A DNA stretch of 64,000 bases from Escherichia coli. GTDB lineage: Bacteria; Pseudomonadota; Gammaproteobacteria; Enterobacterales; Enterobacteriaceae. The position numbers and the translations under genes were made by a program. Where the stretch lies: assembly GCF_013315695.1 (NCBI RefSeq), contig NZ_CP054354.1; one strand, 5' to 3'. A model generated the notes under the pieces. It worked only from the letters and a program-made list of their open reading frames with translations. It was not told the DNA's origin and made no database searches. Of the stretch, positions 14,532-36,842 are shown one piece after another; within the stretch, counting starts at the first letter, position 1; each line of letters begins with the position of its first letter.

Positions 14532-14954
14532 ATGTACTGTACTGTTAAAGAAATCATCCGCGATGTACTGGATACAGACGTGCCGGACAGTGAATGCGTT
14601 TTTGCCGTGGTGCTGACCCGTGGGGATGTGCGTCACATAGCCCAGGACTGGAACCTGTCAGACGATGAGCTGGAAACCGTCATGCAGCGACTGGACGATG
14701 CCTTTGAGCATGGTGCGGATGTCAGCGTTGTTCACGACGTTGTTCGTGAACTGATGGAAGAAAAGCGCGCCAGCCGTCATGTGACAGTCCCGGCGGTGAT
14801 GCTGGAAAAAGTGATGGCGCTGGCAGGCAGTGAAATGAAGCGCCTGTATGCCGTCGGGAGTGAGAACGGGGGCGACGGTGACGCATTCGTCAGGGAGGAA
14901 CGCGAAGCAATGGACGTTGTGTTACAGGCGCTGGACGGGGAGACGATGTCATGA
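14532..14954 (+). CDS. Hypothetical leading-region protein (140 aa); paralogue of 12395-12829
   Basis: RBS aaggagacgagaac-ATG nearly identical to that of 12395; acidic. Confidence 0.6.
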   Translation: MYCTVKEIIRDVLDTDVPDSECVFAVVLTRGDVRHIAQDWNLSDDELETVMQRLDDAFEHGADVSVVHDVVRELMEEKRASRHVTVPAVMLEKVMALAGSEMKRLYAVGSENGGDGDAFVREEREAMDVVLQALDGETMS

Positions 14955-15142
14955 ATATCAGCACAGAAACCCGCGAAATTCTGCGTAATTACAGGGCCGT
15001 GATTAATGCGCGGCGTCGTGAAATGGGGCAGAAACCGCTCACCACCGCGCAGATTGTTGATGAAATCTGCGATTTTGTGGCGAATCAGCAGGCGGTTTTC
15101 CTGGGCGGTCACTACATCCTTCAGGGCAGCAGAAACAGGTGA
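14951..15142 (+). CDS. Hypothetical small protein (63 aa)
   Basis: Start overlaps upstream stop (ATGTCATGA). Confidence 0.4.
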   Translation: MNISTETREILRNYRAVINARRREMGQKPLTTAQIVDEICDFVANQQAVFLGGHYILQGSRNR

Positions 15143-15342
15143 TACAGGGGCAGGCGGTGGAGGCCGCCTGTCAGCCCGCGCGAAAACCCCTGGCAGGCTG
15201 ACGCCTGCCGGAAACGCGGGGTGCAGCGCCTGCGGCGCTGCCGGCCCGGCTTTCCGGTCAGAAGGTAGTGTATGGCTGTATGCAGGGAACAGGAGTGATA
15301 TTCCGTGACACTGTCACCGTTTCTGGCTGTCTTTTATTGCGC

Positions 15343-15905
15343 CCACTTCGGCTCCCGGCTGCCTGGCGGCATCCGGTCGTCAGGCCCGACTCCGACGGGC
15401 AGCTGCTGGCGCACCCGCCAGTCTCCGCCGAACCCGCTGGCGCGGTTTCGGGCTGCCGCTACGGTCCGATGCGTGAAAACCCGGGCTTGCAGCGACCGTT
15501 CCGGTCGCGCCGCCCCTGTCGCGCCGTGACCTGCGCTCCCTGCACACCTGACGGTGTGTGAGGAAACTGCGCCTGATGGCGCAGCAGTCCTCCCTCCTGC
15601 CGCCCCCCCTGCGGCCTGTTTCCCCGCTGTGGACTTTCCGGGGGGCAGACGTAACCCCCTCCCGTTCCATCTGTCCAGGGTGAGATGCACCGGCCACAAA
15701 ATTTTTAGCCATGAACCCGGCAAAAAATTTTGCGTCCGCCCCCGGACAGCTGCCCCGTGAGGCGGTAAACGGGCCCCCATCGGAAAGGTCCACTGCGGGG
15801 AGAAACCCCTGTGAAGTGGACGGCAGGAGGAGCTTTCGCTCCTCTGAAGGGGCACATGAACGTCCCGTCGCCGGTATCCGGTTTATCTCACATCTTTCAG
15901 TCAGG
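15343..15905. repeat. GC-rich ~560-bp non-coding element, family B copy 1 (Frpo/ssi-like), upstream of ssb
   Basis: Repeated at 21690-22240 and partially at 25230-25600; hairpins such as ctgcgcc-tgat-ggcgcag; ORFs here lie on both strands without RBS. Confidence 0.65.
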
Positions 15906-15913
15906 AGGTTCTT

Positions 15914-16441
15914 ATGAGTGCACGTGGTATCAACAAGGTCATCCTCGTCGGGCGTCTGGGCAATGATCCGGAAGTCCGTTACATCCCCAACGGGGGCGCA
16001 GTGGCAAACCTGCAGGTGGCCACATCAGAAAGCTGGCGTGACAAACAGACGGGGGAGATGCGGGAGCAGACGGAATGGCACCGCGTGGTGCTGTTCGGCA
16101 AGCTCGCGGAAGTGGCAGGTGAATATCTGCGCAAGGGTGCGCAGGTCTACATCGAAGGTCAGCTTCGCACCCGTAGCTGGGAAGATAACGGTATCACCCG
16201 TTACGTCACTGAAATTCTTGTTAAGACCACGGGCACCGTGCAGATGCTGGGACGTGCACCACAGCAGAACGCTCAGGCGCAACCGAAGCCTCAGCAGAAT
16301 GGGCAGCCACAGAGTGCTGACGCGACGAAAAAAGGTGGCGCGAAAACGAAAGGCCGTGGACGTAAGGCCGCGCAGCCAGAGCCTCAGCCGCAACCGCCGG
16401 AGGGGGAGGATTACGGGTTTTCAGACGACATCCCGTTCTGA
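15914..16441 (+). CDS. ssb: Plasmid single-stranded DNA-binding protein
   Basis: 175 aa; OB-fold N-terminus ([18 protein letters not shown]), Gln/Pro-rich linker, acidic tail ending DDIPF; AGGAGG RBS. Confidence 0.95.
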
Positions 16442-16498
16442 TCGGGCTGACTGTGACAACCGCCCCGCCCTGTGCGGGGCATCACCGGAGATATGAGG

Positions 16499-16732
16499 AT
16501 GAGCGAATATTTCAGAATACTTCAGGGACTGCCGGACGGCTCCTTTACCCGCGAACAGGCGGAAGCCGTTGCCGCACAGCACCGGAACGTCTTTATCGAG
16601 GATGATCAGGGAACGCATTTTCGCCTGGTTGTCCGTCAGGATGGCACGTTGATCTGGCGCTCCTGGAATTTTGAGGACTGTGCCGGGTACTGGATGAACC
16701 AGTACATCAGGGATTTCGGGATTCTTAAGTAA
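16499..16732 (+). CDS. Hypothetical leading-region protein (77 aa)
   Basis: ATG at 16499 is 8 nt after GGAG (16487-16490); ORF track start 16472 is GTG without RBS. Confidence 0.5.
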
Positions 16733-16790
16733 GAGAGGTGCCGGACGCGCGAACGTCCGGCAGGACATAAGCAATTATAAGGGGATGATT

Positions 16791-18749
16791 ATGCCTGTAA
16801 CGAAGTGTGAACCAGAAACCACCCGCAAAGCAAGCCGTAAATCTGTAAAAACGCAGGAAACTGTCCTGTCTGCCCTGCTGGCGCAGACGGAGGAAGTGAG
16901 CGTGCCGCTGGCCTCGCTGATTAAATCACCGCTGAATGTGCGCACGGTGCCGTATTCTGCGGAGTCCGTCAGCGAACTGGCGGAGTCCATTAAGGGCGTC
17001 GGACTGCTGCAGAATCTGGTCGTGCATACCCTGCCTGGTGACCGTTACGCTGTCGCCGCAGGCGGTCGCCGACTGGCAGCACTCAACATGCTGGCAGAGC
17101 GCAACATCCTTCCGGCTGACTGGCCTGTACGCGTGAAGGTCATTCCGCAGGAGCTGGCGACTGCCGCATCGATGACCGAGAACGGTCAGCGTCGGGATAT
17201 GCACCCTGCCGAACAGATTGCCGGATTCCGCGCAATGGCGCAGGAAGGCAAAACACCTGCACAAATCGGTGATTTGCTGGGCTATTCACCCCGCCACGTT
17301 CAGCGAATGCTGAAACTGGCAGACCTTGCTCCGGTTATCCTCGATGCGCTGGCAGAAGACCGCATCACCACAGAGCACTGTCAGGCGCTGGCGCTGGAGA
17401 ACGACACCGCGCGTCAGGTGCAGGTGTTTGAAGCCGCCTGCCAGTCGGGATGGGGCGGTAAACCGGAAGTACAGACCATTCGTCGTCTGGTGACCGAAAG
17501 TGAAGTGGCGGTGGCGGGGAACAGTAAATTCCGCTTCGTGGGGGCTGATGCCTTCTCGCCAGACGAACTGCGCACCGATTTGTTCAGCGATGACGGGGAC
17601 GGTTATGTCGACCGCGTGGCGCTCGATGCCGCCCTGCTGGAAAAACTCCAGGCTGTCGCAGAGTTCCTTCGGGAAGCCGAAGGCTGGGAATGGTGCGCCG
17701 GACGCATGGAGCCTGTCGGTGAGTGCCGTGAAGATGCCCGGGCATACCGCAACCTGCCGGAGCCGGAAGCGGTGCTGACGGAGGCGGAAGACGAACGTCT
17801 GAACGAACTGATGGCTCGTTACGACTCGCTGGAAAACCAGTGTGAGGAATCTGACCTGCTGGCAGCAGAAATGAAGCTGATTGACTGCATGGCGAAGGTC
17901 AGGGCGTGGACGCCGGAGATGCGTGCCGGAAGTGGCGTGGTGGTGTCCTGGCGTTACGGTAATGTGTGTATCCAGCGTGGTGTGCAGTTGCGCAGTGAGG
18001 ATGATGTGGCTGACGACGCTGACCGCACGGAACAGGGGCTGGAGAGCGCGTCAGTGGAGGAAATTAGTCTGCCGTTGCTGACTAAATTGACCTCAGAGCG
18101 CACGCTGGCTGTCCAGGCAGCACTGATGCAGCAACCGGACAAATCCCTGGCACTGCTGGCATGGACGCTCTGCCTGAATGTGTTTGACAGCAAAGCGCAT
18201 AGTAGTCCCGCCAGAATTCGCCTGGAATGTGAGCATTATGCGCTGACCAGCGATGCACCGTCAGGGAAGGAAGGTGCCGCATTCATGGCGCTGATGGCAG
18301 AACACTCTCGTTTTGCTGCCCTGCTGCCGGAAGGATGGGAACGGGATATGACGACGTTCCTGTCACTTAGCCAGGAGGTGCTGTTATCCCTGCTCAGTTT
18401 CTGTACCGCGTGCAGTCTTAACGGTGTCCAGACCCGCGAGTGTGGTCACACGTCACGCAGTCCGCTGGACTCGCTGGAAACCGCCATCGGCTTTCACATG
18501 CGCGACTGGTGGCAGCCGACAAAAGCAAACTTCTTCGGACACCTGAAAAAGCCGCAGATTATCGCAGCCCTGAATGAGGCCGGACTGTCCGGTGCCGCAC
18601 GGGACGCGGAGAAAATGAAGAAAGGCGATGCGGCTGAACATGCAGAGTTCCATATGAAAGACAACCGCTGGGTGCCTGGCTGGATGTGTGCACCACGTCC
18701 ACAGACGGATGCCACTGAACACACCGCTAACCTGGCTGATGCCGCCTGA
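16791..18749 (+). CDS. ParB-like nuclease-domain protein of the leading region (~652 aa)
   Basis: N-terminal ParB/Srx-like segment (GLLQNLVVHTLPGDRYAVAAGGRRLAALNML); alternative ATG at 16785. Confidence 0.8.
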   Translation: MPVTKCEPETTRKASRKSVKTQETVLSALLAQTEEVSVPLASLIKSPLNVRTVPYSAESVSELAESIKGVGLLQNLVVHTLPGDRYAVAAGGRRLAALNMLAERNILPADWPVRVKVIPQELATAASMTENGQRRDMHPAEQIAGFRAMAQEGKTPAQIGDLLGYSPRHVQRMLKLADLAPVILDALAEDRITTEHCQALALENDTARQVQVFEAACQSGWGGKPEVQTIRRLVTESEVAVAGNSKFRFVGADAFSPDELRTDLFSDDGDGYVDRVALDAALLEKLQAVAEFLREAEGWEWCAGRMEPVGECREDARAYRNLPEPEAVLTEAEDERLNELMARYDSLENQCEESDLLAAEMKLIDCMAKVRAWTPEMRAGSGVVVSWRYGNVCIQRGVQLRSEDDVADDADRTEQGLESASVEEISLPLLTKLTSERTLAVQAALMQQPDKSLALLAWTLCLNVFDSKAHSSPARIRLECEHYALTSDAPSGKEGAAFMALMAEHSRFAALLPEGWERDMTTFLSLSQEVLLSLLSFCTACSLNGVQTRECGHTSRSPLDSLETAIGFHMRDWWQPTKANFFGHLKKPQIIAALNEAGLSGAARDAEKMKKGDAAEHAEFHMKDNRWVPGWMCAPRPQTDATEHTANLADAA

Positions 18750-18803
18750 TGAACAACCACACCGCCCCGCCGGAGACGGGGCGGCAGCAAGGGAGATACC
18801 GTG

Positions 18804-19238
18804 ATGAAAACTGAACTGACCCTGAATGCCCTGCAGTCCATGAACGCACAGGAATATGAAGATATCCGTGCTGCGGGAAGCGATATGCGCCGTAATCTCA
18901 CTCACGAGGTGATGCGTGAAGTGGACGCACCGGCTAACTGGGTGATGAACGGAGAGTATGGCAGTGAGTTCGGGGGCTTTTTCCCCGTCCAGGTTCGTTT
19001 CACGCCAGCCCACGAACGTTTCCACCTGGCATTATGTTCGCCGGGAGACGTCTCTCAGCTCTGGATGCTGGTTCTGGTGAATGGTGGTGGACAGCCTTTC
19101 GCCGTCGTTCAGGTGCAACATATCTTCACGCCTGTCGCGATCAGTCACACGCTGGCGCTTGCCGCGACACTGGATGCGCAGGGATACAGTGTTAACGACA
19201 TCATCCATATCCTGATGGCAGAAGGAGGTCAGGCATGA
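18804..19238 (+). CDS. psiB: Plasmid SOS inhibition protein PsiB
   Basis: [27 protein letters not shown]...[34 protein letters not shown] matches F PsiB as recalled; GGGAG RBS 8 nt upstream; GTG at 18801 used by the ORF track. Confidence 0.95.
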
Positions 19239-19954
19239 GCGCACGTTCACGGGCACTGATCCCCCTCAGCGCAGAACAACAGGCCGCCATGCAGGCGGTG
19301 GCTGTCACAGAACAACGTCGTCGTCAGGGACGCACACTTTCAGCATGGCCTTATGCCACCGCTTTCTTTCGCTGCCTGAATGGCAGTCGCCGGATTTCGC
19401 TGACCGATCTCCGCTTTTTTGCCCCTGCGCTGACGAAGGAGGAATTTCATGGCAACCGTCTCCTGTGGCTGGCTGCCGTGGATAAACTGATTGAAAGTTT
19501 TGGGGAAGTCTGTGTTCTTCCCCTGCCATCCGATGCGGGGCACCGTCTGTTCCCGTCCGTGCCTTTTCGTGAAGGTGAGCGTCGTCGTCAGAAAACCACG
19601 CTGACAGAGCAGAAATACAGCCGCCAGCGGGAACGTGAGGCAGAACGACGGGAACTGGAATACCAGACATGTTTTGCTCAGGCGCAGATTGACCTTGCGT
19701 TTCATACTCCCGCCACGGTCGGAAGCTGGTTGTCCCGCTGGTCTGGTGTTGTTGAGGAGCATGATCTGGAAACGATTTTCTGGGGGTGGTGCGGGCGTTT
19801 TCCATCACTGTCATCATTTGACCGGTTTTTCTGGCAGGAGGAACCACTCTGGCGGCTGATTTTTGAAGCCGGTGAGGCCGGTCGTGGTGCACCGGTACAG
19901 GTACGTGCACTTGAGCAGTGGATGATCCCGAACAAGCTGGAGAACGTAATATGA
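19235..19954 (+). CDS. psiA: PsiA
   Basis: 239 aa directly downstream of and overlapping psiB (ATGA), the conserved psiB-psiA arrangement. Confidence 0.85.
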
Positions 19955-20547
19955 TGAAATCAGACGAAAAATACCAGGTTCCCGCGTGGATGCGACCTCT
20001 GTTGCCGTTGCTCTGCAACACCGGGGGGAACGATCCGGAAGAACTGCTGAATGATACAGAAACCACTGCCAGTGCGAATGTTGTCCGTTATGTACTGATA
20101 GTTGCTGTGCGGTCGCAGGTTGATCTGCTGCAGCTTCTGTACAGGAAAGGGCTGTTGCGCACAGAGATACCAGGTGGCTTTTCACCGGAAGAAGCGCAGG
20201 CACTCCTGGATAATCTGGTGCGCAGCCATATCAGCAAGGCGCTGTCGGGCGAGCGAATGGCAGCCCGTGACAGAAATGCCGATCTGGCCTGGATTGGACA
20301 GCAACTGGTCGATGCCGCCTGGTTTGTCCGTGCCACACTGGAAGCGCATGGGATGAGCGTCGGAAATGAGAGTCCCCCTGCTCCGCCGGAGACAATGCCG
20401 GACATACAGACACGGGAACTGGTGATGTTGATCAAGCGACTGGCATCATCGCTGAAAGCGGTGAAACCGGACAGTTGTGTGGTGCGTGAAGCGCAGGACT
20501 GGCTGCGCGACAGAAAACTTGTGGATATCACAGATATTCTCCGGTGA
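19951..20547 (+). CDS. Hypothetical leading-region protein (198 aa)
   Basis: ATG overlaps psiA stop (ATATGA); ORF track start 19918 lies inside psiA. Confidence 0.55.
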   Translation: MMKSDEKYQVPAWMRPLLPLLCNTGGNDPEELLNDTETTASANVVRYVLIVAVRSQVDLLQLLYRKGLLRTEIPGGFSPEEAQALLDNLVRSHISKALSGERMAARDRNADLAWIGQQLVDAAWFVRATLEAHGMSVGNESPPAPPETMPDIQTRELVMLIKRLASSLKAVKPDSCVVREAQDWLRDRKLVDITDILR

Positions 20548-20649
20548 ACCAGGCATGTATATTTTACGCAGGGACATGCCGGTCATGATCGTTTCGTTCC
20601 AGGGGTGGTCTGGAGATCATGCGGTGTGCTCCCTGCTCTCGCCGGAATA

Positions 20650-20992
20650 AGGACGTCGCCGCCGGCTCCGCTTTTACCCGGCCATGCGGGGCATGGCCTT
20701 GTGGGTTTTCAGTTATGTGGCCGCCGTGTCGTGTGCGGGCTGTGCCGTGCCTCCATCGTAGCCGGGCTTCTGCGGGCGGGATGCAAGGTAAGATGAACCG
20801 CTGCGGTCACCCGGTCCCTCCTTCCCGTCTGCCGTGATTTTCCGGTCGTTCACCCGCTCAGATTTCGCGGTCTCACCCTCCAACTCCCGCCAGCCGTGTG
20901 CGTCAGGCTGCGGCTTCCCTTGCGCCCTTGCATCCCTGCAGGCCCGGCAAAGATGGAGGCACGGCACCGCCCGGTGTCGCAGAACATGTGAC
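20650..20992. repeat. GC-rich ~340-bp non-coding element, family A copy 2, immediately upstream of ardA
   Basis: Near-identical to 13701-14040 over ~330 bp. Confidence 0.7.
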
Positions 20993-21008
20993 TATGGAGG
21001 ATTCGGGA

Positions 21009-21509
21009 ATGTCTGTTGTTGCACCTGCTGTATACGTTGGAACCTGGCACAAATACAACTGTGGAAGCATCGCTGGCCGCTGGTTTGACCTGACAACGTT
21101 TGATGATGAACGCGACTTTTTCGCCGCCTGCCGTGCCCTTCACCAGGATGAAACCGACCCGGAACTGATGTTTCAGGATTATGAGGGATTCCCGGGGAAT
21201 ATGGCCTCTGAATGCCATATCAACTGGGCCTGGGTTGAAGGCTTCCGCCAGGCGCGGGATGAAGGCTGCGAAGAGGCTTATCGTCTCTGGGTGGATGATA
21301 CCGGTGAGACGGATTTTGACAGCTTCCGCGATGCCTGGTGGGGCGAGGCTGACAGTGAGGAGGCTTTTGCGGTTGAGTTCGTCAGTGATACCGGCCTGCT
21401 GGCTGACGTGCCGGAGACGGTGGCGCTCTATTTTGACTATGAGGCGTATGCGCGGGATTTATTCCTGGACTCCTTCACCTTTATTGACGGTCATGTGTTC
21501 CGTCGGTGA
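21009..21509 (+). CDS. ardA: Antirestriction protein ArdA
   Basis: 166 aa from ATG at 21009 (GGAGG RBS 20996-21000); MSVVAPAVYVGTWHKYNCGSIAGRWFDLTTFDDE and very acidic C-terminal half typical of ArdA DNA mimics. Confidence 0.85.
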   Translation: MSVVAPAVYVGTWHKYNCGSIAGRWFDLTTFDDERDFFAACRALHQDETDPELMFQDYEGFPGNMASECHINWAWVEGFRQARDEGCEEAYRLWVDDTGETDFDSFRDAWWGEADSEEAFAVEFVSDTGLLADVPETVALYFDYEAYARDLFLDSFTFIDGHVFRR

Positions 21510-21689
21510 TTTACTCCCCGCTCCGGCGGGGGGATGGCCTGCCAGGCCCCCGGAAAACCCTGGCAGGCTTACGCCTGCCTGAAATACAGGAGGGCCGCGC
21601 CTGCGGCGCTACCCTTCCTGCCTGTCATAGTGTGAGGCATTTTTCTGTTTTGTCGTTTCTGTTGTTCTGACTCCCGGGGGCGGGGACAC

Positions 21690-22240
21690 CCTTCGGCTCC
21701 CGGCTGCCTGGCGGCATCCGGTCGTCAGGCCCGACTCCGACAGGCAGCTGCTGGCGCACCCGCCAGTCTCCGCCGAACCCGCTGGCGCGGTTTCGGGCTG
21801 CCGCTACGGTCCGATGTCTGAAAAACCAGGCTTGCAGCGACCGTTCCGGTCGCGCCGCCTCTGTCGCGCCGTGACCTGCGCTCCCTGCACACCTGACGGT
21901 GTGTAAGGAAACTGCGCCTGATGGCGCAGTTGTCTGCCCTTCCGCCGCCCCCCCTGCGGCCTGTTTCCCCGCTGTGGACTTTCCGGGGGCTGAAGCGGCC
22001 ACAACACGTTTCAGCCGTCCAGGGGAGAGATGTACCAGCCACAAAACTTTTTGCCGCAAGCGTCAAAAACTTTTGCGTCTGCCCCCGGACAACTGCCCCG
22101 TGCCGTGGCAGTCGCTGCCCCATCGGAAAGGTCCACTGCGGGGAGAAACCCCGAAGAAGTGGACGGCAGAAGGGGCTTTCGCCCCTCCGGGGGAGCAACC
22201 GGTCGGCCCGGCGACCTGATTCAGCAGAAGGAGACGTTTT
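21690..22240. repeat. GC-rich non-coding element, family B copy 2 (Frpo/ssi-like)
   Basis: Aligns with 15343-15905 along most of its length; ends at the RBS of the 22242 gene. Confidence 0.65.
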
Positions 22241-22241
22241 C

Positions 22242-22676
22242 ATGACAGTCAGCAGCACGATTTCCGTTTTTTGCCGCGACGGGGTGTTCCGTACCGTTTA
22301 CTGCCACCTGCACGGTGAGCCGACCTGGAACGGTCGCATCCTGCATACCCACTATGCCACCGGTCAGCAGGCCGAAGCCCTGGTTGAACACGGTGATATC
22401 CGTTGCCTCGGTCCCCGTTGCGACAAACCCGCCGGGCATACGCTTCAGAACCCGGTGGACGGTGTGACGGCTTATTACGGACGTGACAGTGGTTTCCGGA
22501 TGGACAGTGAGGCGCGTGAGTACCGTTCTTTCAGGGAGGCCATCGCCACGGAAAGCACTGAAGAGGTGCGCTTCCATTATGTGTTCATCGACGGCTACTG
22601 GAAGGTGATGTACCGCACGCCGGAAGGCTGGAAGATGAAAGCGCTCGCGCTGGCACTGCGTCGCTGTCCGGAATGA
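22242..22676 (+). CDS. Hypothetical leading-region protein (144 aa)
   Basis: AAGGAG RBS then ATG at 22242; followed by hairpin terminator gcagggcgataaaccctgc (22682-22700). Confidence 0.55.
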   Translation: MTVSSTISVFCRDGVFRTVYCHLHGEPTWNGRILHTHYATGQQAEALVEHGDIRCLGPRCDKPAGHTLQNPVDGVTAYYGRDSGFRMDSEAREYRSFREAIATESTEEVRFHYVFIDGYWKVMYRTPEGWKMKALALALRRCPE

Positions 22677-22768
22677 AAAAAAGCAGGGCGATAAACCCTG
22701 CCTTTCTCCGCTGGCGCTTCCCCGTACGGAAGTCCGGCATCTCATTCACTAACTATGGAGATTATGCC

Positions 22769-23035
22769 ATGAGACCATCAATTATCTTCGCAACCGCCGA
22801 GTATGTAAAGCGTCTGCGAGAAGAGTGCCTGCGGGAGAACAAACCCCTGCACCGCCATACCCGCTTCAGACGCCAGGAACTGGCACCGGATGAGATTAAC
22901 CCGGACGTCCTGGCGATGGGCGGTCATATCGCCAGACGCTGCAGTGAGCAGAAGCGGGTACGTATCCCCGCCATGAAAGTCAGCGAATGGGGCCACCTGC
23001 TCCGCGCGCTTGAAATTGAACGGGTCTGTCACTGA
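22769..23035 (+). CDS. Hypothetical basic protein (88 aa)
   Basis: ATG at 22769 after ctatggagattatgcc; Arg/His-rich. Confidence 0.45.
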   Translation: MRPSIIFATAEYVKRLREECLRENKPLHRHTRFRRQELAPDEINPDVLAMGGHIARRCSEQKRVRIPAMKVSEWGHLLRALEIERVCH

Positions 23036-23211
23036 TTAACCCCTGCCGTCTGCCTGTGCAGGTGGCAGGATGTGTTCAGGTACTTTACCAGGAGGAACCG
23101 TGAGCAAGATGAAAAACATCACGACGTCTGTGTTGCATGGTGTCTCCACAAAAAACAGAAAAGGGAAACAGATTCTCTTTCATTCAGGGCCCGGGAGGGC
23201 TGGAGATAACA

Positions 23212-23601
23212 ATGAAGTCTTGTTTTGATACTGACAAAGCTTTTCATATGTCTTTTGATGAAGTCACTTTCAACGCTGACAGAATTCGCTCAAAACTGGA
23301 ACTATTATCCGAAGAACTAATGCCCCGTTGTGGTCTTGTTTATGAGCTATATCAGCGACGTTTGAGTGCTGCTATTGATAATTTTGTGGCCACATTGCCG
23401 ACAGAACAACATCTACTGGTCCTGGAACTGGCCCGTGAGGAGTTTGATTACCTTTCCGCAGAAGAGATTGCTGAAGAAATACGCCGTGACTCAGAACGCG
23501 GCTATTGTTGTCATGGCTTTGAACGCAATTGCTGTCCTCTCGGTTGTGGGGATTTGGGCGATGATTGCTGCGATGCTGCTGATTTGATGGAGGAACCGTG
23601 A
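23212..23601 (+). CDS. Hypothetical acidic protein with Cys-rich C-terminus (129 aa)
   Basis: GGAG RBS 23202-23205; C-terminal CCHGFERNCCPLGCGDLGDDCCD. Confidence 0.5.
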   Translation: MKSCFDTDKAFHMSFDEVTFNADRIRSKLELLSEELMPRCGLVYELYQRRLSAAIDNFVATLPTEQHLLVLELAREEFDYLSAEEIAEEIRRDSERGYCCHGFERNCCPLGCGDLGDDCCDAADLMEEP

Positions 23602-24512
23602 GTAAGAAGAAAAACACCACAACGCCCACGCCGCATGATGCCGCGTTCCGGTCGTTCCTGGCGAATCCCGACGTCGCCAGAGATTTTCTGGAACTGCATC
23701 TTCCTGCGGAGTACCGGCAGTTGTGCGACCTGTCCACGCTGAAGCTGGAACCCGCCACCTTTGTAGAGCCGGACCTGCATCAGTACGCCAGCGATATCCT
23801 CTGGAGCGTGAAAACCACCGGGGGTGAAGACGGCTATGTTTATACGCTCATCGAGCACCAGAGCACAGAAAATCTGTACATGCCTTTTCGCATGTTACGC
23901 TACAGTGTGGCGGCGATGCAGAGACATCTGGAGCAGCACAAAACGTTGCCACTGGTGATTCCGGTGCTGTTCTATCACGGTGAGCGCAGCCCGTACCCGT
24001 ACAGCATGAACTGGCTGGACTGTTTTGAGAATCCGGCACTTGCGGCTAAAATATACACAAAACCGTTTCCGCTGGTTGATATCACTGTCGTTGATGACAA
24101 TGAAATCATGAATCATCGCCGGATGGCCGCACTGACGCTGCTGATGAAGCATATCCGCCATCGTGACATGATGGAGCTGCTGGACAAACTCCCGCAGGTC
24201 ATGGTGGAAATTTCAGACGAGCAGGTGCGTGTTCTGATTCATTACATCGTTAACGCAGGGGACTCTGTATCACCGGAATTTATGCGGGCGCTGGCTGAGC
24301 GTCTGCCGCAGCATGAGGATAAACTGATGACTATCGCAGAACGTCTTGAGCAAAAAGGTCGCCAGGAAGGCAGGATGGAAGGACGCATGGAAGGAGCGCT
24401 TGAAAAAGCCCTGGCTATTGCGTGCCAGCTTCAGAAAATGGGGATGACGCCGGAGCAGATTAAGCAGGCTACCGGACTTTCCGATGACGAACTGAAGAAA
24501 ATCACTCACTGA
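23598..24512 (+). CDS. Rpn (YhgA-like) recombination-promoting nuclease, PD-(D/E)xK family
   Basis: 304 aa, GTG start after GGAGG; N-terminal PHDAAFRSFLANPDVARDFLELHLP and C-terminal QEGRMEGRMEG...MGMTPEQIKQATGLSDDELKK are characteristic of Rpn proteins as recalled. Confidence 0.8.
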   Translation: MSKKKNTTTPTPHDAAFRSFLANPDVARDFLELHLPAEYRQLCDLSTLKLEPATFVEPDLHQYASDILWSVKTTGGEDGYVYTLIEHQSTENLYMPFRMLRYSVAAMQRHLEQHKTLPLVIPVLFYHGERSPYPYSMNWLDCFENPALAAKIYTKPFPLVDITVVDDNEIMNHRRMAALTLLMKHIRHRDMMELLDKLPQVMVEISDEQVRVLIHYIVNAGDSVSPEFMRALAERLPQHEDKLMTIAERLEQKGRQEGRMEGRMEGALEKALAIACQLQKMGMTPEQIKQATGLSDDELKKITH

Positions 24513-24519
24513 TGAGAAC

Positions 24520-24552
24520 CGCAAAGCCCGGCAAAATCCCGGGCTTTTTTGC
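24520..24552 (+). terminator. Rho-independent terminator after rpn
   Basis: aaagcccggcaaaatcccgggctttttt: GC stem plus T-run. Confidence 0.6.
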
Positions 24553-24574
24553 CTGCAGGAGCAGAGCAAACAGC

Positions 24575-24745
24575 ATGACGATTGCAGAACGTCTTATACA
24601 GAAAGGTTTTGAAAAAGGTGCTCTTGAAGTGGCGCGGGAAATAGCCTGCCGGCTGCGGGATATGGGCTGGACGCCGGAACGGATTCAGGAGGCGACCGGA
24701 CTTTCCGGTGAAGAACTGAAAAAGCTGTTTCCTGATGAGCAGTAG
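24575..24745 (+). CDS. Free-standing Rpn C-terminal-domain paralogue (RpnS-like small protein, 56 aa)
   Basis: MTIAERLIQKGFEKGALEVAREIACRLRDMGWTPERIQEATGLSGEELKK parallels the rpn C-terminus MTIAERLEQKG...; begins after the rpn terminator; weak RBS. Confidence 0.45.
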   Translation: MTIAERLIQKGFEKGALEVAREIACRLRDMGWTPERIQEATGLSGEELKKLFPDEQ

Positions 24746-24775
24746 CCTGGCATTCTGCCAGGCTGTGAATCACGC

Positions 24776-25027
24776 TCACACATCCTCTGCCGTTTCCCCC
24801 AGTTCATTTTCCAGTCGCCTGATGATATCTGCCTTACGCATCCCCTGCATGTGAGGCAGCAGGTCACGGACTGAAAGTGCCTGGGTGGTCCTCCAGACGG
24901 TGACATCCACCTGCTCCGCATTTTCCCAGGCGTGCCATGTTCTCTGTGTCACGCCAAATTCTCTGGCCGCTTTTTCGCGTGACCAGAGCATGCTTTTTCG
25001 CCAGATTCGCAGTTCCCAGCCGGTCAT
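24776..25027 (-). CDS. Small Xre-like helix-turn-helix regulator (83 aa)
   Basis: REKAAREFGVTQRTWHAWE resembles an Xre-type HTH; divergent from the leading-region genes; operator-like repeats upstream. Confidence 0.5.
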   Translation of the reverse strand: MTGWELRIWRKSMLWSREKAAREFGVTQRTWHAWENAEQVDVTVWRTTQALSVRDLLPHMQGMRKADIIRRLENELGETAEDV

Positions 25028-25039
25028 AAAATACCTTTT

Positions 25040-25140
25040 AAAAAGTGAAAAAACTTCACTTTATTTTATCACCATAATCACCAAATCAGCGCGAAAAATA
25101 AATGTGAAAAAGTGAAGAAATTTCACTTTTTTTAGTTGTA
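25040..25140. promoter_or_regulatory. Inverted-repeat operator candidates (GTGAA-N-TTCAC) upstream of the Xre-like gene
   Basis: aaagtgaaaaaacttcacttt and gtgaaaaagtgaagaaatttcac in an AT-rich stretch. Confidence 0.4.
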
Positions 25141-25229
25141 GATGTCGTGCTGTTTTCTCTGTTTTCACCTGTGCGGGAGTGGGTGTCAGTGACCACCACA
25201 TGCCATTGTTGTGCCGTCGTTTTTCTTCA

Positions 25230-25600
25230 GTCGCGCCGGATGCAGCGCTCCCTGCACACCTTACGGTGTGTAAGGCCACTGCGCCTGATGGCGCAGCTGT
25301 CTCTGCCTGTCTGCCGCCGCACTGCGGCCTGTTCTCCGCAGACGGACTTTCCGGGGAACATACACGACCACATCCCGTTTCAGTTATCCAGGGGAGAGAT
25401 GTACCAGCCACAAAACTTTTTGCCGCAGGCGTCAAAAACTTTTGCGTCTGCCCCCGGACAACTGCCCCGTGACGTGGTGAGCATCCCCCGTCGGAAAGGT
25501 CCACTGCGGGGAAATCCCCGAAGACCCGGACGGCAGAAGGAGCTTCGCTCCTCCGGGAAATGACCTGGCTGACCCGGCAGTCGTGACGATGAGGAGACAA
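25230..25600. repeat. GC-rich non-coding element, family B copy 3 (partial, 3' ~370 bp)
   Basis: Aligns with the 3' part of 15343-15905 and 21690-22240; ends at the RBS of the 25605 gene. Confidence 0.6.
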
Positions 25601-25604
25601 TGTG

Positions 25605-26453
25605 ATGAATCAGACTTTACCCACTGCTGACCTGAATACTGCCGGCACGACAGATGTTATTCCGTCTGTAGCTATCGACCGCATCATCGCGCAGCGTAAC
25701 GAAGGTATTGCACTGTTCATGCAGGCGATGGAATGCCTGGCGACAGCGCGCAAGATTCTGCTCGATGCGTCAGGTGATATTTTTCTTTACGGGTTTGAAG
25801 ACTGCGTGACTGATTCCGTTCGTCGCATGGATAAGACGGAAGAAGCGAAAAGGAATATCACCCGTCTTGCCGACCGGAAAATCTGGGACCGCCTGATGAC
25901 AGATACGGGCATGTACACCTTCATGAGTTCATGCCAGCGTGATGAGTGGAACAGCCAGCTGATGAGCGACACCTGTCCTGAAATCACCCTGGACAATGTA
26001 CTGGCAACATTCCGCCATCTTAATGCCAGCAAGATGCAGACGTTTGAACAGGGGCTGATTGATGTCTACCGGAAATTGTCATGGGATTACAGAACCAATA
26101 ATCCCTGCCGTCTGGGTAAGAAAATCATTATTGAAAACCTACTGTACCGCTGGAGTAACGGGCGTGTGACGCTGGACTGCAGCGGACGGGAGGCACTGGA
26201 TGACCTGGTACGTCCGTTTTATCTGCTGGAGGGGCGCAACGTTCCTGACTTCAGGAACAGCATCGGGGCGCAGTATGGTGAATTTCTCGGGAACGGTGAC
26301 AATGTCGGTAAGCTGTTAGAAGGGGAATATTTTACGGTGCGTGGCTACCAGAAAGGGACCGTACACATTGTCTTTAAGCGTTCTGACCTTGTTGAAAAAC
26401 TGAATGATATTATTGCACGGCATTATCCTGGTGCATTGCCGCCACGAGTCTGA
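25605..26453 (+). CDS. Hypothetical leading-region protein (283 aa)
   Basis: GAGGAG RBS 25591-25596 then ATG at 25605; terminator-like hairpin at 26464-26496. Confidence 0.6.
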   Translation: MNQTLPTADLNTAGTTDVIPSVAIDRIIAQRNEGIALFMQAMECLATARKILLDASGDIFLYGFEDCVTDSVRRMDKTEEAKRNITRLADRKIWDRLMTDTGMYTFMSSCQRDEWNSQLMSDTCPEITLDNVLATFRHLNASKMQTFEQGLIDVYRKLSWDYRTNNPCRLGKKIIIENLLYRWSNGRVTLDCSGREALDDLVRPFYLLEGRNVPDFRNSIGAQYGEFLGNGDNVGKLLEGEYFTVRGYQKGTVHIVFKRSDLVEKLNDIIARHYPGALPPRV

Positions 26454-26538: not shown

Positions 26539-26880
26539 TCAATTGTTGTTCATATCGATGCCATCTTTCCTGCCTGAATCTGTCTTTTTAGGTGCTGTTT
26601 TAGAGGAAGAACGGCGGGATGGTTTTTTCGATTCTGCTTCCCGAATAATGTCACGAAGTGCTTTCTCTCCTACTTCATATCCTGCATTTTTGAGCGTGTC
26701 ACGAACATCTGTCAGTGTATAACCCTTTGTCCTTACCAGGATAATGATGTCATCACGAATGGCATCAAGAAAATCACGCAATGTTTTCCGTTGAGCGGTG
26801 AGGTCTGGCAATTCCGATAAAGCAGCTTTTGCCAGCTGGATGTCATCATCTGAGTAAAATTTTTTAGACGCCATTGGCAC
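26539..26880 (-). CDS. Hypothetical Lys/Ser-rich protein adjacent to oriT (113 aa)
   Basis: GGAGAG RBS before GTG at 26880 (alternative ATG at 26874); basic C-terminal tail. Confidence 0.5.
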   Translation of the reverse strand: MPMASKKFYSDDDIQLAKAALSELPDLTAQRKTLRDFLDAIRDDIIILVRTKGYTLTDVRDTLKNAGYEVGEKALRDIIREAESKKPSRRSSSKTAPKKTDSGRKDGIDMNNN

Positions 26881-26989
26881 TTTCTCTCCGTTTAATGTTG
26901 AAGCCTGATTTTATCATCAAAAACTGCCTCCTGGCAGGGCTGCGCCCTGCCTCTGCCGTCTGCATAAGACTATGATGCACAAAAATAAC

Positions 26990-27065
26990 AGGCTATAATG
27001 GACTGAAAAACGGGACAGGATGTGTAATCGTATAACCGCGCACGCACGGCTATACGATTACCACC
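26990..27065 (-). other. oriT core: MOBP-type nic site ATCCTG|T on the minus strand (nick between 27016 and 27015) plus 11-bp inverted repeat
   Basis: Minus strand reads cacATCCTG|TCCCGTTTTTC; inverted repeat GTAATCGTATA...TATACGATTAC at 27024-27061, 7-8 nt from the nick; sits just upstream of nikA-nikB. Confidence 0.75.
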
Positions 27066-27106
27066 TGGTCAGGGCTTAGCCCCGACACCCCGGTAAGGAG
27101 CAGACC

Positions 27107-27439
27107 ATGAGTGAGAAGAAAACCCGAAGTGGCAGTGAGAAACGGCAAAAGAATGTCCTCATTGCTGTTCGTTTTTCACCAGAAGAGGCTGAGATTGTTA
27201 AAGAAAAGGCAGAAAAAAACGGACTGACAGTTTCAACTCTGATAAGAAAAACTGTGCTGGGAAAACAGATAAATGCCCGCATTGACGAAGATTTTTTGAA
27301 AGAGCTGATGCGTCTTGGTCGCCTGCAGAAGCATCTGTTTGTGGAAGGAAAACGCACGGGAGATAAAGAGTATGCAGAGGTTCTCGTTGCTATTACAGAG
27401 CTTGCTAATACTCTGCGAAGAAATTTAATGGGACGCTGA
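27107..27439 (+). CDS. nikA: Relaxosome accessory protein NikA (ribbon-helix-helix)
   Basis: 110 aa; VRFSPEEAEIVKEKAEKNGLTVSTLIRK...LMRLGRLQKHLFVEGKR matches R64 NikA as recalled; AAGGAG RBS. Confidence 0.9.
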   Translation: MSEKKTRSGSEKRQKNVLIAVRFSPEEAEIVKEKAEKNGLTVSTLIRKTVLGKQINARIDEDFLKELMRLGRLQKHLFVEGKRTGDKEYAEVLVAITELANTLRRNLMGR

Positions 27440-27450
27440 GATAATCGCTG

Positions 27451-30171
27451 ATGAATGCCATCATTCCGAAAAAAAGACGTGACGGAAAGTCTTCTTTTGA
27501 AGACCTGATTGCGTACACCTCAGTGCGGGATGATGTGCCGGAAGATGAACTCAGGCCTGACACGGAAATGAAAGCTGAGATTCCGCACCGGAACCGCTTC
27601 AGACGTCTTGTTGATTATGCAACACGTCTGCGTAATGAAAAATTTGTTTCCCTGATTGATGTGATGAAAGACGGCAGTCAGTGGGTGAATTTCTATGGTG
27701 TGACCTGCTTTCATAACTGTTTGTCTCTTGAATCTGCGGCTGAAGAAATGCAGAAAGCAGCAGAGCTTGCTCATTTTTCCAAAGATGATACAGACCCTGT
27801 TTTTCACTATATTCTCTCCTGGCCTGCGCACGAAAGTCCGCGTTCTGAGCAGCTTTTTGACTGTGTGCGTCACACCCTGAAATCCCTTGAGCTGTCAAAA
27901 CATCAGTATGTGGCAGCCGTTCATACAGACACGGATAACCTGCATGTACATGTTGCAGTGAATCGTGTCCACCCTGAAACCGGCTATATCAATTGCCTTC
28001 CGTGGAGCCAGGAAAAACTCAGTCGTGCATGCCGTGAACTTGAACTTAAGCACGGATTCGCGCCGGATAATGGTTGCTTTGTACATGCACCGGGCAATCG
28101 TATTGTGCGCAAAACAGCGCTGGTACGTGAGCGCCGTAATGCCTGGCGACGCGGGAAAAAGCAGACGTTCAGGGAATATATTGATCAGATGTCGATTGCC
28201 GGGCTGCGTGAAGAGCCAGCACAGGACTGGTTATCTTTGCATAAACGGCTGGCCAGTGATGGTCTGTATATCACGATGCAGGAAGGGGAACTGGTGGTGA
28301 AGGATGGCTGGGACAAAGCGCGGGAAGGTATTGCACTCAGTTCGTTCGGACCGTCATGGACAGCTGAAAAACTGGGGCGGAAACTGGGGGAATATCAGCC
28401 TGTACCGACAGATATTTTCAGTCAGGTGGGGACACCCGGTCGTTATGATCCGGAAGCCATAAACGTTGATATCCGGCCGGAAAAAGTGGCAGAAACGGAG
28501 AGTCTGAAACAGTACGCCTGCCGTCATTTTGCCGAACGCTTACTGGCAATGGCGCGCAATGGTGAACTGAAAAGCTGCCTGGCTGTACACCGTACTCTGG
28601 CAGAGGCGGGATTATGGATGGGGATTCAACACGGGCATCTGGTACTGCATGATGGATTTGATAAACAACAGACACCAGTACGTGCAGACAGTGTGTGGCC
28701 GTTAATGACGCTGGATTACATGCAGGATCTGGATGGTGGATGGCAGCCTGTACCGAAGGATATTTTTACTCAGGTCGTTCCCGGAGAACGATTCCGGGGA
28801 CACAGTATTGGCTCTCAGCCTGTCAGTGATTACGAATGGTATCGCATGAGGATGGGCACAGGTCCGCAGGGGGCTATAAAGCGTGAACTGTTTTCTGATA
28901 AGGAAAGTCTGTGGGGATACGGCCTTATTCAGTGCAGGAGCCTGATTGAAGAGATGATAGCTGACGGGGATTTCAGCTGGCAGGCATGTCATGAGATGTT
29001 TGCACGTAAAGGGCTTATGCTGCAGAAACAGCATCATGGTCTTGTGATTGTGGATGCGTTTAATCATGAGCTGACACCGGTGAAGGCCAGCAGTATCCAT
29101 CCTGATTTGACGTTATCCCGTGCCGAGCCTCAGGCCGGGCCATTTGAAATTGCGGCTGCAGATATTTTCGAACGGGTGAAGCCTGAATGTCGTTACAATC
29201 CGGAACTTGCTGCCAGTGATGAAGTGGAACCCGGCTTCCGGCGCGATCCTGAGATTCGTCGTGAGCGCCGTGAAGCCCGTGCAGCTGCGCGGGAAGATTT
29301 GCGTGCGCGTTATCTTGCATGGAAGGAGCACTGGCGTAAACCCGACTTACGTTACGGAGAACGGTTACGGGAAATTCATGCTGCCTGCCGTCGGCGCAAG
29401 GCGTATATCCGTGTGCAGTTCCGGGATCCACAATTGCGTAAGCTGCATTACCATATTGCGGAAGTGCAGCGTATGCAGGCGCTGATCAGGCTGAAGGAGA
29501 GTGTGAAGGAAGAGCGGTTGTCACTGATTGCGGAGGGTAAGTGGTATCCTTTGTCCTACCGGCAGTGGGTGGAACAACAGGCGGCTCAGGGAGACAGGGC
29601 TGCAGTATCGCAGTTACGTGGCTGGGATTATCGTGATCGTCGCTCGCGTAATAAGGATAAAAGACGCACAACTAATGTTGATCGTTGTGTCGTACTCTGC
29701 GAACCCGGAGGAACGCCACTTTTTAATAATGTTGCAAAACTTGAAGCTCGTCTTCAGAAAAATGGAAGTGTTCATTTCAGGGATACGCGGACAGGAAAAA
29801 ATGTCTGTACGGATTACGGAGATCGGGTTGTTTTCTACCATCACACGGACCGAAATGAACTGGCAGAGAAGCTTGATTTAATTGCGCCAGTTCTGTTCAG
29901 CCGCAACGGAAAGCTTGGTTTTGAGCCGGAAGGTTCATACCAGCAGTTTAATGATGTGTTTGCAGAAATGGTGGCCTGGCACAATGCAGCGGGAATAACC
30001 GGAAACGGACACTTCACCATTACTCGTCCGGACGTGGATTTGCACCGTCAACGCAGTGAGCAGTATTACCGGGAATATATCAGACAGCAGACCCGTTTAT
30101 CGGAGAGCCATGATGATAATTATACGTTACGGCAGGAGAAAACATGGGAGCCACCATCACCTGGAATGTAA
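27451..30171 (+). CDS. nikB: Relaxase NikB (MOBP family)
   Basis: 906 aa; relaxase histidine motif HVHVAVNRVHP; directly downstream of nikA. Confidence 0.95.
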   Translation: MNAIIPKKRRDGKSSFEDLIAYTSVRDDVPEDELRPDTEMKAEIPHRNRFRRLVDYATRLRNEKFVSLIDVMKDGSQWVNFYGVTCFHNCLSLESAAEEMQKAAELAHFSKDDTDPVFHYILSWPAHESPRSEQLFDCVRHTLKSLELSKHQYVAAVHTDTDNLHVHVAVNRVHPETGYINCLPWSQEKLSRACRELELKHGFAPDNGCFVHAPGNRIVRKTALVRERRNAWRRGKKQTFREYIDQMSIAGLREEPAQDWLSLHKRLASDGLYITMQEGELVVKDGWDKAREGIALSSFGPSWTAEKLGRKLGEYQPVPTDIFSQVGTPGRYDPEAINVDIRPEKVAETESLKQYACRHFAERLLAMARNGELKSCLAVHRTLAEAGLWMGIQHGHLVLHDGFDKQQTPVRADSVWPLMTLDYMQDLDGGWQPVPKDIFTQVVPGERFRGHSIGSQPVSDYEWYRMRMGTGPQGAIKRELFSDKESLWGYGLIQCRSLIEEMIADGDFSWQACHEMFARKGLMLQKQHHGLVIVDAFNHELTPVKASSIHPDLTLSRAEPQAGPFEIAAADIFERVKPECRYNPELAASDEVEPGFRRDPEIRRERREARAAAREDLRARYLAWKEHWRKPDLRYGERLREIHAACRRRKAYIRVQFRDPQLRKLHYHIAEVQRMQALIRLKESVKEERLSLIAEGKWYPLSYRQWVEQQAAQGDRAAVSQLRGWDYRDRRSRNKDKRRTTNVDRCVVLCEPGGTPLFNNVAKLEARLQKNGSVHFRDTRTGKNVCTDYGDRVVFYHHTDRNELAEKLDLIAPVLFSRNGKLGFEPEGSYQQFNDVFAEMVAWHNAAGITGNGHFTITRPDVDLHRQRSEQYYREYIRQQTRLSESHDDNYTLRQEKTWEPPSPGM

Positions 30172-35281: not shown

Positions 35282-35312
35282 AAAAAAGCCGACTGGTGAG
35301 GCCGGCTTTTTT
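35282..35312. terminator. Hairpin flanked by A-run and T-run (bidirectional terminator geometry) at the start of type I module 1
   Basis: aaaaaagccgactggtgaggccggctttttt; on the minus strand the hairpin is followed by a T-run. Confidence 0.55.
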
Positions 35313-35375
35313 GCGATCCCAGGGAGAGTGGGTGGCTCTGGCCCGGAGGAAGTCTCTTTTCAACTAACGTTACCA
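35313..35375 (-). ncRNA. Predicted antisense sRNA for module 1 (cis-encoded upstream, minus strand)
   Basis: 35335-35367 repeats 35570-35601 (in the toxin leader) at ~31/33; a minus-strand transcript here would be complementary to the leader and end at the 35282-35312 terminator. Not demonstrated. Confidence 0.3.
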
Positions 35376-35673
35376 GAATATCGTTATATTCACCTGATCG
35401 CAATCTGTTCGTTACAGTCTATTGTTCCGGGAGTAGCGATATCGCCTGAAACAAGTATAATCAGCAAGTTAGCCTTGTCTGGAGACTTACCTTCGCATCA
35501 ATCCATCGGGACTATGGATCTGTGCTATTCAAAGACCTGGGCGGACAAACAGGTGGTGCTGCGTCTGGTGCTCTGGCCGGAGGAAGTCTCTTTTCAGCTA
35601 ACAATGAAAGAGCTGTTGTGACAGGCAATGTAAGAGTAAACAACAGTGATTTCCTCCATTGATGGAGAAACGG

Positions 35674-35769
35674 ATGATTAACCTGTTAATCATCGTTCTC
35701 AGGGCGGTTGTTGCTGTGGCTAACGCAGTGATAGCTCTCCTGGAACTGATCCGGGAACTGGTTGACTGA
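35674..35769 (+). CDS. DinQ/TisB-like type I toxin, copy 1 (31 aa, single transmembrane helix)
   Basis: MINLLIIVLRAVVAVANAVIALLELIRELVD; GGAG RBS 6 nt upstream next to a CCTCC stretch; strong terminator 35791-35816; below the ORF-track size cutoff. Confidence 0.6.
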   Translation: MINLLIIVLRAVVAVANAVIALLELIRELVD

Positions 35770-35790
35770 TAATCCCGGAAACGTACTTAA

Positions 35791-35819
35791 GGGCAGAGGG
35801 TCACCGCCCTCTGCCCTTT
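35791..35819 (+). terminator. Terminator hairpin after toxin copy 1
   Basis: gggcagaggg-tcaccg-ccctctgccc followed by ttt. Confidence 0.55.
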
Positions 35820-36010
35820 AATAATCTACGGACAGATTACTTTCTGTACTTCCAGAGCCTGTTTCTGTGAGTCAAACATGAGCTGGTTTTTACCGACTAC
35901 ACCCAAGTAAATATATTCGATATCTCCCATTTGCCGTATTTTCGTAAAATTCAACAGGAAATATTCAACGGGAGTGAGAGAACTGCTGTCCGGGGAGGAG
36001 GTACAGACGC

Positions 36011-36044
36011 AAAAAAACCGACTGGTGAGGCCGGTTTTTTTGCG
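36011..36044. terminator. Hairpin with flanking A/T runs at the start of type I module 2
   Basis: aaaaaaaccgactggtgaggccggttttttt, paralogue of 35282-35312. Confidence 0.55.
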
Positions 36045-36105
36045 ATTCCGGATCGAAGTTGGTAGCCCTGACCGGAAGATAACTGCCTATAACTGACTAT
36101 GAAAT
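36045..36105 (-). ncRNA. Predicted antisense sRNA for module 2
   Basis: 36071-36101 repeats 36254-36292 (toxin 2 leader) at ~26/30; repeat sequence differs from module 1. Confidence 0.3.
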
Positions 36106-36357
36106 AATACGGCTGAAATAATATTTCTGCAAGCACAGTATAAGTATATACTCGGTGTGTCAGCTTTGAGGCACGTTCTTTCCGGCATATCGTTCACCGG
36201 GATGAACAGGTTGCAAGTCCTGGCCAAAACATCAGGTGGTGCTGGTTTTGGTGCTCTGGCCGGAGAAGAACTGTCTATAACTGACACTATAGAAAACGTG
36301 GCGACAGGCAATGTAAGGGCAAACCACGGTGTTCTTTCTCCATTGATGGAGAAGCGG

Positions 36358-36453
36358 ATGATTAACCTGTTAATCATCGTTCTCAGGGCGGTTGTTGCTG
36401 TGGCTAACGCAGTGATAGCAATCCTGGAACTGATCCGGGAACTGGTTGACTGA
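36358..36453 (+). CDS. DinQ/TisB-like type I toxin, copy 2 (31 aa)
   Basis: MINLLIIVLRAVVAVANAVIAILELIRELVD, one substitution from copy 1; same RBS context and terminator. Confidence 0.6.
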   Translation: MINLLIIVLRAVVAVANAVIAILELIRELVD

Positions 36454-36473
36454 TAATCCCGGAAACGTACTTA

Positions 36474-36503
36474 AGGGCAGAGGGTCACCGCCTTCTGCCC
36501 TTT
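36474..36503 (+). terminator. Terminator hairpin after toxin copy 2
   Basis: gggcagaggg-tcaccg-ccttctgccc then ttt. Confidence 0.55.
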
Positions 36504-36515
36504 AACAAAATATGC

Positions 36516-36692
36516 TCAGGTTAAAAATCGAAAACCTTCCTGCACTTCCTGTGCCTGTTCCCGTGAGTCAAACATGAGCCGGCTTTTACCCGGAACTCCC
36601 CAGGAAATATATTCTACATCCACCCACCATTTTCCGTATTCTTCATACGGTCCGGATATCACTTTAGTGACAAATGCATCAACCAGGTTCAT
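36516..36692 (-). CDS. Hypothetical small protein (58 aa) convergent with toxin copy 2, possibly co-transcribed with nuc
   Basis: AAGGTG RBS then ATG at 36692; MNLVDAFVTKVISGPYEEYGKWWVD...; a frameshifted paralogous stretch lies at ~35830-35950. Confidence 0.35.
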   Translation of the reverse strand: MNLVDAFVTKVISGPYEEYGKWWVDVEYISWGVPGKSRLMFDSREQAQEVQEGFRFLT

Positions 36693-36842
36693 TTTTACAC
36701 CTTTCTGTTATTCTGCTTATTACGACCAGCAGACAGCAAATATTAAAAATAACGCGGCGGTAAAAATGGCAATTTTTTTCCATGCTGTATTTTTGCCATT
36801 TATTTTCTTTGAAATGGTTTTTTTCTTCATATCAGCAAATAA

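Follow-up and report, generated by a model that had tools for sequence, protein, structure and literature searches.

Relaxases of the MOBP family cut DNA 3′ of the motif ATCCTG, and transfer is led by the 5′ end, to which they stay bound (PMC3772185, PMC7736820, PMC8125031). The nic site that pCTX-M3 (IncM) carries, ACATCTTG|T (the bar marks the nick here and below), is described as IncI1-like, and mutation of its nic region, which had been predicted from R64, abolished self-transfer (PMC8125031, PMC7440800). The origins of transfer (oriT) of IncB and IncZ plasmids were previously identified via comparison with R64, and a second inverted repeat of 8 bp has been described for the R64 and IncZ oriTs (PMC3817090). 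Conjugation of pMS7163B (IncB/O/K/Z) requires nikAB (PMC10286972), and small Col plasmids are thought to be mobilised by relaxosomes of the I-complex (PMC9282650, PMC10123127). On the other side of the nick, leading-region genes follow a published rule by which the transferred strand serves as template (PMC11541004, PMC7736820), and IncI1 plasmids carry ssi/Frpo promoters (PMC12672017, PMC7736820). In pESBL (IncI1), inversion of a 120-bp oriT resulted in a restriction sensitivity equal to that caused by deletion of the leading-region methylase (PMC7736820). Previous publications have covered this plasmid group's oriT, how it relates to R64 by homology (PMC3817090), and why its orientation matters (PMC7736820, PMC11541004). 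For the nick position of R64 we relied on established knowledge and on papers citing it (PMC3817090, PMC8125031, PMC7440800, PMC3772185); PMC9282650, PMC5714925 and PMC9412624 yielded no nick sequence.

We analysed a stretch of Escherichia coli DNA of 64,000 nucleotides (the window), for which a preliminary description had proposed an oriT. Positions 27011-27090 of the window are almost certainly the site from which a conjugative IncB/O/K/Z plasmid (I-complex) starts its transfer, an oriT homologous to that of R64 and oriented such that the leading region is transferred first. The oriTs of the IncB/O/K/Z plasmids R16, R805a, p3521, pO26-CRL125, pMS7163B and p86 have essentially the same sequence, of which the window holds another copy. 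Over 6687-35506, the window aligns colinearly with R16 (IncB/O), at 99.5% identity, and 801 bp around the oriT are 99.8% identical to R16 and to the IncB/O reference R805a; in p86 (NZ_CP023387, typed IncK2/Z) a 151-bp oriT query is 100% identical. Identity to R64 amounts to 94% in the leading region and to 83% across oriT-nikAB. Table 1 lists the coordinates of the features.

Table 1. Features of the oriT, the relaxosome genes and the leading region in the window
Feature	Position	Strand	Basis
Nick-region core CATCCTG|T (predicted nick G27016/T27015)	27015-27022	-	Direct reading
Nick-proximal arm of large inverted repeat, CGGTTATACGATTAC	27024-27038	-	Homologue of R64 17-bp repeat arm
Nick-distal arm of large inverted repeat, GTAATCGTATAGCCG	27047-27061	-	Repeat finder, folding
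Second 8-bp inverted repeat, GTCGGGGC-TAA-GCCCTGAC	27068-27086	-	R64 alignment, folding, alignment of 15 oriTs
Comparatively conserved oriT module	27011-27090	-	Block common to relaxase-less small plasmids
nikA, ribbon-helix-helix relaxosome accessory protein (110 aa)	27107-27439	+	PF21983, NCBIfam MobA, PDB 2BA3
nikB, MOBP relaxase (906 aa)	27451-30171	+	NF041893, PF03432
Leading region	10120-26453	+	Pfam; annotation of 99.5%-identical R16 and of p86
ArdA	21008-21509 (ORF 20898-21509, annotated start ~21008)	+	Pfam
PsiA	19235-19954	+	Pfam
PsiB	18801-19238	+	Pfam
SSB	15914-16441	+	Pfam
KlcA/ArdB-type antirestriction protein	14060-14485	+	Pfam
DNA methylase	11476-12159	+	Pfam
Frpo/ssi-like hairpin repeat (~330 nt)	25227-25557	-	Repeat search, folding
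Frpo/ssi-like hairpin repeat, further copy	21860-22191	-	Repeat search, folding
Frpo/ssi-like hairpin repeat, further copy	15518-15844	-	Repeat search, folding

Direct reading of the minus strand from 27061 to 27008 yields GTAATCGTATAGCCG-TGCGTGCG-CGGTTATACGATTAC-ACATCCTG|TCCCGTTT, and from 27090 to 27008 GGGGTGTCGGGGCTAAGCCCTGACCAGGTG-GTAATCGTATAGCCG-TGCGTGCG-CGGTTATACGATTAC-ACATCCTG-TCCCGTTT. The MOBP-type nick consensus ATCCTG|T reported for this strand in the preliminary description is present at 27022-27015, a span occupied by the octamer CATCCTGT in a motif search. This nick core fits the MOBP consensus YATCCTG|Y (PMC3772185) as well as the nic of IncM and IncI1 (PMC8125031). It is embedded in the 12-mer CACATCCTGTCC (27024 to 27013), which is identical in R64, invariant in 15 of 15 diverse oriTs (see below) and matched exactly at this site only within the window. 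Other MOBP origins are cleaved on the 3′ side of this G; on that pattern, the predicted nick separates G27016 from T27015, the latter being the expected 5′ end of the strand to be transferred.

An ATCCTG beside a palindrome might be a coincidence, with the real oriT or nick elsewhere in the plasmid. YATCCTGY occurs 18 times in the window versus 8.5 expected copies, and the motif alone was dropped as evidence for an oriT on these grounds. The leading region also contains a near-copy of the nick core, CATATCCTGTCC at 13489-13500 (plus strand), which differs by one mismatch, lacks an adjacent inverted repeat and is probably due to chance. However, when the 70 nt 5′ of each YATCCTGY copy were scanned for inverted repeats that end at a distance of 4-12 nt, a flanking repeat was found at the 27015-27022 copy only (score 10), while the other 17 copies scored at most 4. 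Furthermore, the site has the same position as in R64, immediately upstream (45 bp) of nikA-nikB, a gene pair read in the direction away from the leading region, and related versions of the 80-bp block are conserved in 3654 plasmids, including relaxase-less plasmids of 1.5 kb that share nothing else. In view of these data, a chance arrangement appears extremely improbable.

The nick-proximal arm of the large inverted repeat lies 5′ of the predicted nick and ends at 27024, leaving a spacer of exactly 8 nt (ACATCCTG). The repeat has a perfect 11-bp core (GTAATCGTATA / TATACGATTAC) and comprises 15 bp if one G·T pair is included; a repeat finder stretches it to 18 nt with 89% complementarity (arms 27024-27041 and 27044-27061). 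The preliminary description of an 11-bp inverted repeat 7-8 nt 5′ of the nick thus holds for the core and the spacing, whereas the repeat as such is longer, being the homologue of the 17-bp repeat of R64. The arms of the second repeat (27086-27079 and 27075-27068) enclose a loop of 3 nt. The originally proposed oriT range of 26990-27065 omits this conserved 8-bp repeat and needs to be revised, as the oriT reaches to about 27090. In the alignment with small plasmids, conservation runs from GGGTGTCGGGG to CATCCTGTCCYG (TCCYG) with unrelated flanks on both sides, and the oriT was comparatively delimited by these limits of similarity. Folded as single-stranded DNA, the minus strand forms both oriT hairpins at -26.2 kcal/mol (z = -5.9 versus dinucleotide shuffles). 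Rfam yielded no match at the oriT or at the hairpin repeats. A reading of the large repeat as a terminator was rejected: a terminator scan made no call, and no minus-strand gene runs into the repeat.

A promoter scan found no canonical nikA promoter on the plus strand, the only candidate being located on the minus strand in front of a divergent ORF; a perfect TATAAT at 26994-26999 (plus strand) has a poor -35 element. The stretch 26885-27005 is nearly identical between the window and R64, in contrast to the neighbouring repeat and nikA, both of which have diverged. This TATAAT lies in it, as do a promoter-like site on the minus strand (26937 to 26908) and a perfect 8-bp palindrome (26933-26940 / 26944-26951); the stretch is probably a conserved divergent control region.

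Alignment with the R64 oriT, which had been suggested as a check of the assignment, shows conservation of the nick core, of the 8-nt spacing and of the 8-bp repeat, together with about 120 bp on the leading-region side, while the arms of the large repeat diverge. R64 and ColIb-P9 (IncI1) resemble the window in that the oriT is located upstream of nikAB with the CACATCCTGTCC core, the same spacing and the 8-bp repeat, and in the gene order and orientation of the leading region. The 8-bp repeat of R64 is identical to that of the window apart from its loop. In contrast, the distal arm of the large repeat reads GCAATTGTAATAGCGTC in R64 versus GTAATCGTATAGCCG in the window, the arm changes being mostly compensatory, and the loop is 1-2 nt shorter in the window. 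RP4 (IncP), the MOBP prototype with TraJ-TraI, is like the window with respect to YATCCTG|Y, a repeat few nucleotides 5′ of the nick, a ribbon-helix-helix (RHH) accessory protein, a relaxase with Tyr22 and a histidine triad, and 5′-first transfer away from the relaxase operon (PMC3772185). Unlike the window, it has no 8-bp second repeat, an MPF_T rather than an MPF_I type IV secretion system and a different leading region, and there is no sequence similarity beyond the nick hexamer.

The NikA protein encoded in the window matches PF21983 (NikA-like, 6e-22), the NCBIfam model MobA (111 bits) and PDB entry 2BA3, the N-terminal RHH domain of R64 NikA; in a profile search it also matches TraJ weakly. 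Its identity to R64 NikA is 67%, with divergence in residues 1-60 and a nearly identical C-terminal half. Between repeat classes (see below), NikA differs mainly at residues ~14-23, which are expected to form the β-strand of the RHH fold, and also elsewhere in the N-terminal half. The joint divergence of the repeat arms and of the NikA N-terminus from R64 suggests, at the level of sequence, a different NikA/oriT specificity class. NikB matches NF041893 (TraI/MobA(P) relaxase, 410 bits) and PF03432, and is 72% identical to R64 NikB, with conservation of Tyr22 and of the histidine motif HTDTDNLHVHVAVNRVH; a sequence search of NikB against the PDB gave only marginal matches to HUH transposases.

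We compared 15 diverse oriTs, of which nine are from small plasmids (1.5-3.9 kb) and the others from IncI1, IncIγ and IncK2/Z plasmids and one Enterobacter plasmid. Compensatory double changes that keep the pairing are found at 8 of the 16 pairs of the large repeat. For the whole structure with both repeats, 94.8% of the cells are paired, versus 33-49% in slid controls in which the 3′ partner was moved by 1-3 columns, and none of 500 shuffles matched the observed covariation score. In the 8-bp repeat 99.2% of the cells are paired. One G·T pair of this repeat on the minus strand is invariant in all 15 oriTs and never restored to a Watson-Crick pair; on the opposite strand it becomes a C·A mismatch. 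This suggests, from the sequences, that the wobble, or the matching base pair in the duplex, may itself be recognised.

By itself, covariation in a palindrome does not prove a hairpin, because a symmetric protein site in duplex DNA would be expected to produce it just as well. Accordingly, the palindrome might primarily be a NikA operator in double-stranded DNA that autoregulates the nikAB promoter, its symmetry reflecting binding of a dimer instead of a transfer hairpin. The covariation fits both models alike, RHH proteins are typical repressors, and the repeat is located between the perfect TATAAT and the nikA start codon. Such regulation would be compatible with oriT function, however, as the accessory proteins of relaxosomes usually combine the two roles. 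Both repeats and the nick core persist in small plasmids without nikA and nikB, where there is nothing to regulate, and the G·T pairs of both repeats exist on the minus strand only; a role as single strand is favoured for these two reasons. R64 NikA reportedly binds one repeat arm only, judging by the title of a report by Furuya and Komano from 1995 (cited in PMC5789077), which also speaks against a symmetric operator. We consider a primary operator function very unlikely, and retain the interpretation of the repeats as parts of the oriT.

The distribution of the module among plasmids is wide. The 57-bp segment of nick and repeat (27010-27066) is at least 99% identical in 166 database plasmids. 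The exact repeat class of the window is found in 339, of which 214 are typed 'mobilizable' and 124 conjugative, i.e. small carriers outnumber conjugative ones. Among the 'mobilizable' carriers, the examples listed are 1.5-4.4 kb in size, among them one of 1549 bp from E. coli O104:H4 2009EL-2050. The 80-bp module with both repeats and the nick core is common to the window and to small Col plasmids, namely the pCERC7/NTP16 family and 1549-bp Col(MG828) plasmids. In hundreds of small plasmids typed as mobilizable, this module is all that they have in common with the window, which agrees indirectly with a putative cis-acting role in mobilisation. The window holds a complete self-transmissible system, whereas the oriT-only or nikA-only plasmids have neither nikB nor a leading region, and often no nikA either; nikB is absent from each of nine small plasmids that were retrieved.

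Around one invariant nick core we distinguish the repeat classes of the window and IncB/O (GTAATCGTATA), of R64 (GCAATTGTAATA), of K2/Z (GGGGAATGTCTGA) and of Enterobacter (GCATTTGTAATA). Each of these is present in relaxase-less small plasmids, as copies of the R64, K2/Z and Enterobacter types were found there too. Based on this, we tentatively hypothesize that the large repeat and the β-strand of NikA constitute a small specificity code of at least four classes, each with a private set of hitchhikers per I-complex lineage; we regard this as possible, with the chances somewhat against it. In a 2117-bp Salmonella plasmid (CP093083.1, positions 136-242), the distal arm is of the window type (GTAATCGTATAGCCG) and the proximal arm of the IncIγ type (CGGTTATACAATTGC), with two pairs broken. 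This chimeric oriT may be a recombinant between oriT classes and hints at exchange between them.

Since the predicted nick lies on the minus strand, the 5′ to 3′ direction heads towards lower coordinates, and the leading region enters first. All Pfam-confirmed leading genes are located below the nick (11476-21509) on the plus strand, which makes the minus strand their template; of the 28 CDS in the corresponding stretch of p86, 26 have plus-strand and 2 minus-strand orientation. The data support an order of entry in which, from 26.9 kb, a DUF4942 gene and an Rpn-family gene are followed by ardA, psiA/psiB, a parB-like gene, ssb, klcA and the methylase gene, then by the remaining part of the circle, by tra/trb, nikB and nikA and, at last, by both repeats.

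The three Frpo-like hairpin repeats gain 17-18 kcal/mol in stability on the minus strand relative to the plus strand (-93.8 versus -75.7 kcal/mol at 25227-25557, -107.1 versus -90.3 at 21860-22191, and -105.4 versus -87.0 at 15518-15844). The oriT fold displays a modest asymmetry of 3.6 kcal/mol (-26.2 on the minus versus -22.6 on the plus strand). Mononucleotide shuffles, 30 per sequence, were used in this strand comparison. Such an asymmetry is characteristic of G·T pairs turning into C·A mismatches on the complement, and could possibly serve as an indicator of the transferred strand that is independent of homology. A second family of dispersed repeats, a pair of 353 nt (13700-14052 / 20649-21001), is located just upstream of klcA and ardA and forms long hairpins.

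Transfer in the opposite sense, with the plus strand nicked and nikAB and trb/tra entering first, found no supporting point in these data. At this site ATCCTG exists on the minus strand only, the repeat must be 5′ of the nick, as it is in RP4 and R64 (PMC3772185), plus-strand transfer would place the leading genes on the wrong strand for transcription from single-stranded DNA (PMC11541004), and the Frpo-like hairpins favour the minus strand. In the related pESBL, inversion of the oriT is deleterious under restriction (PMC7736820). Such a reversed polarity has, in our estimate, next to no likelihood. The polarity proposed initially, with ardA, psiB and ssb transferred before nikAB and the tra genes, is supported by the homology of the layout to R64 and RP4, the strand of the genes and the asymmetry of the hairpins.

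The first ORF on the leading side of the oriT (26539-26880, minus strand, 113 aa) is coded on the transferred strand. RefSeq names it 'molybdopterin-guanine dinucleotide biosynthesis protein MobC', with no match to a Pfam or NCBIfam model; this name is probably a propagated misnomer. Elsewhere in the window, a type I toxin-antitoxin region of the dqlB/AgrB type is duplicated (35282-35940 and 36003-36794, with an Rfam AgrB match at 36009-36096 on the minus strand), and a hok/sok locus is indicated by an Rfam sok match at 39596-39752 (plus strand).

A possible mechanism may be outlined by analogy to the biochemistry of R64 and RP4, from which we infer where the nick falls, what NikA and NikB do and that hairpins mediate termination. 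NikA would bind the nick-proximal arm of the large repeat and position NikB; within CATCCTG|T of the minus strand, NikB would cut after G27016, its Tyr22 becoming linked to the 5′ phosphate of T27015. The minus strand would then be unwound and exported 5′-first towards lower coordinates. First to arrive would be the leading region (ardA, psiAB, ssb, klcA, methylase), as template-sense single-stranded DNA with putative hairpin promoters. The rest of the circle, with tra/trb, nikB and nikA last, would follow, and both repeats would come at the very end, where they could form hairpins for recognition and re-ligation, and thus for termination.

The value of this oriT assignment lies in a sound premise for the annotation of the leading region; it adds no new biology. 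The anti-defence interpretation of the leading region that had been built on this polarity starts from a sound premise as well. With strand and direction fixed, the stretch from ~10 to 26.5 kb can be read as leading region, and its uncharacterised plus-strand genes become candidates for establishment and anti-defence functions expressed early.
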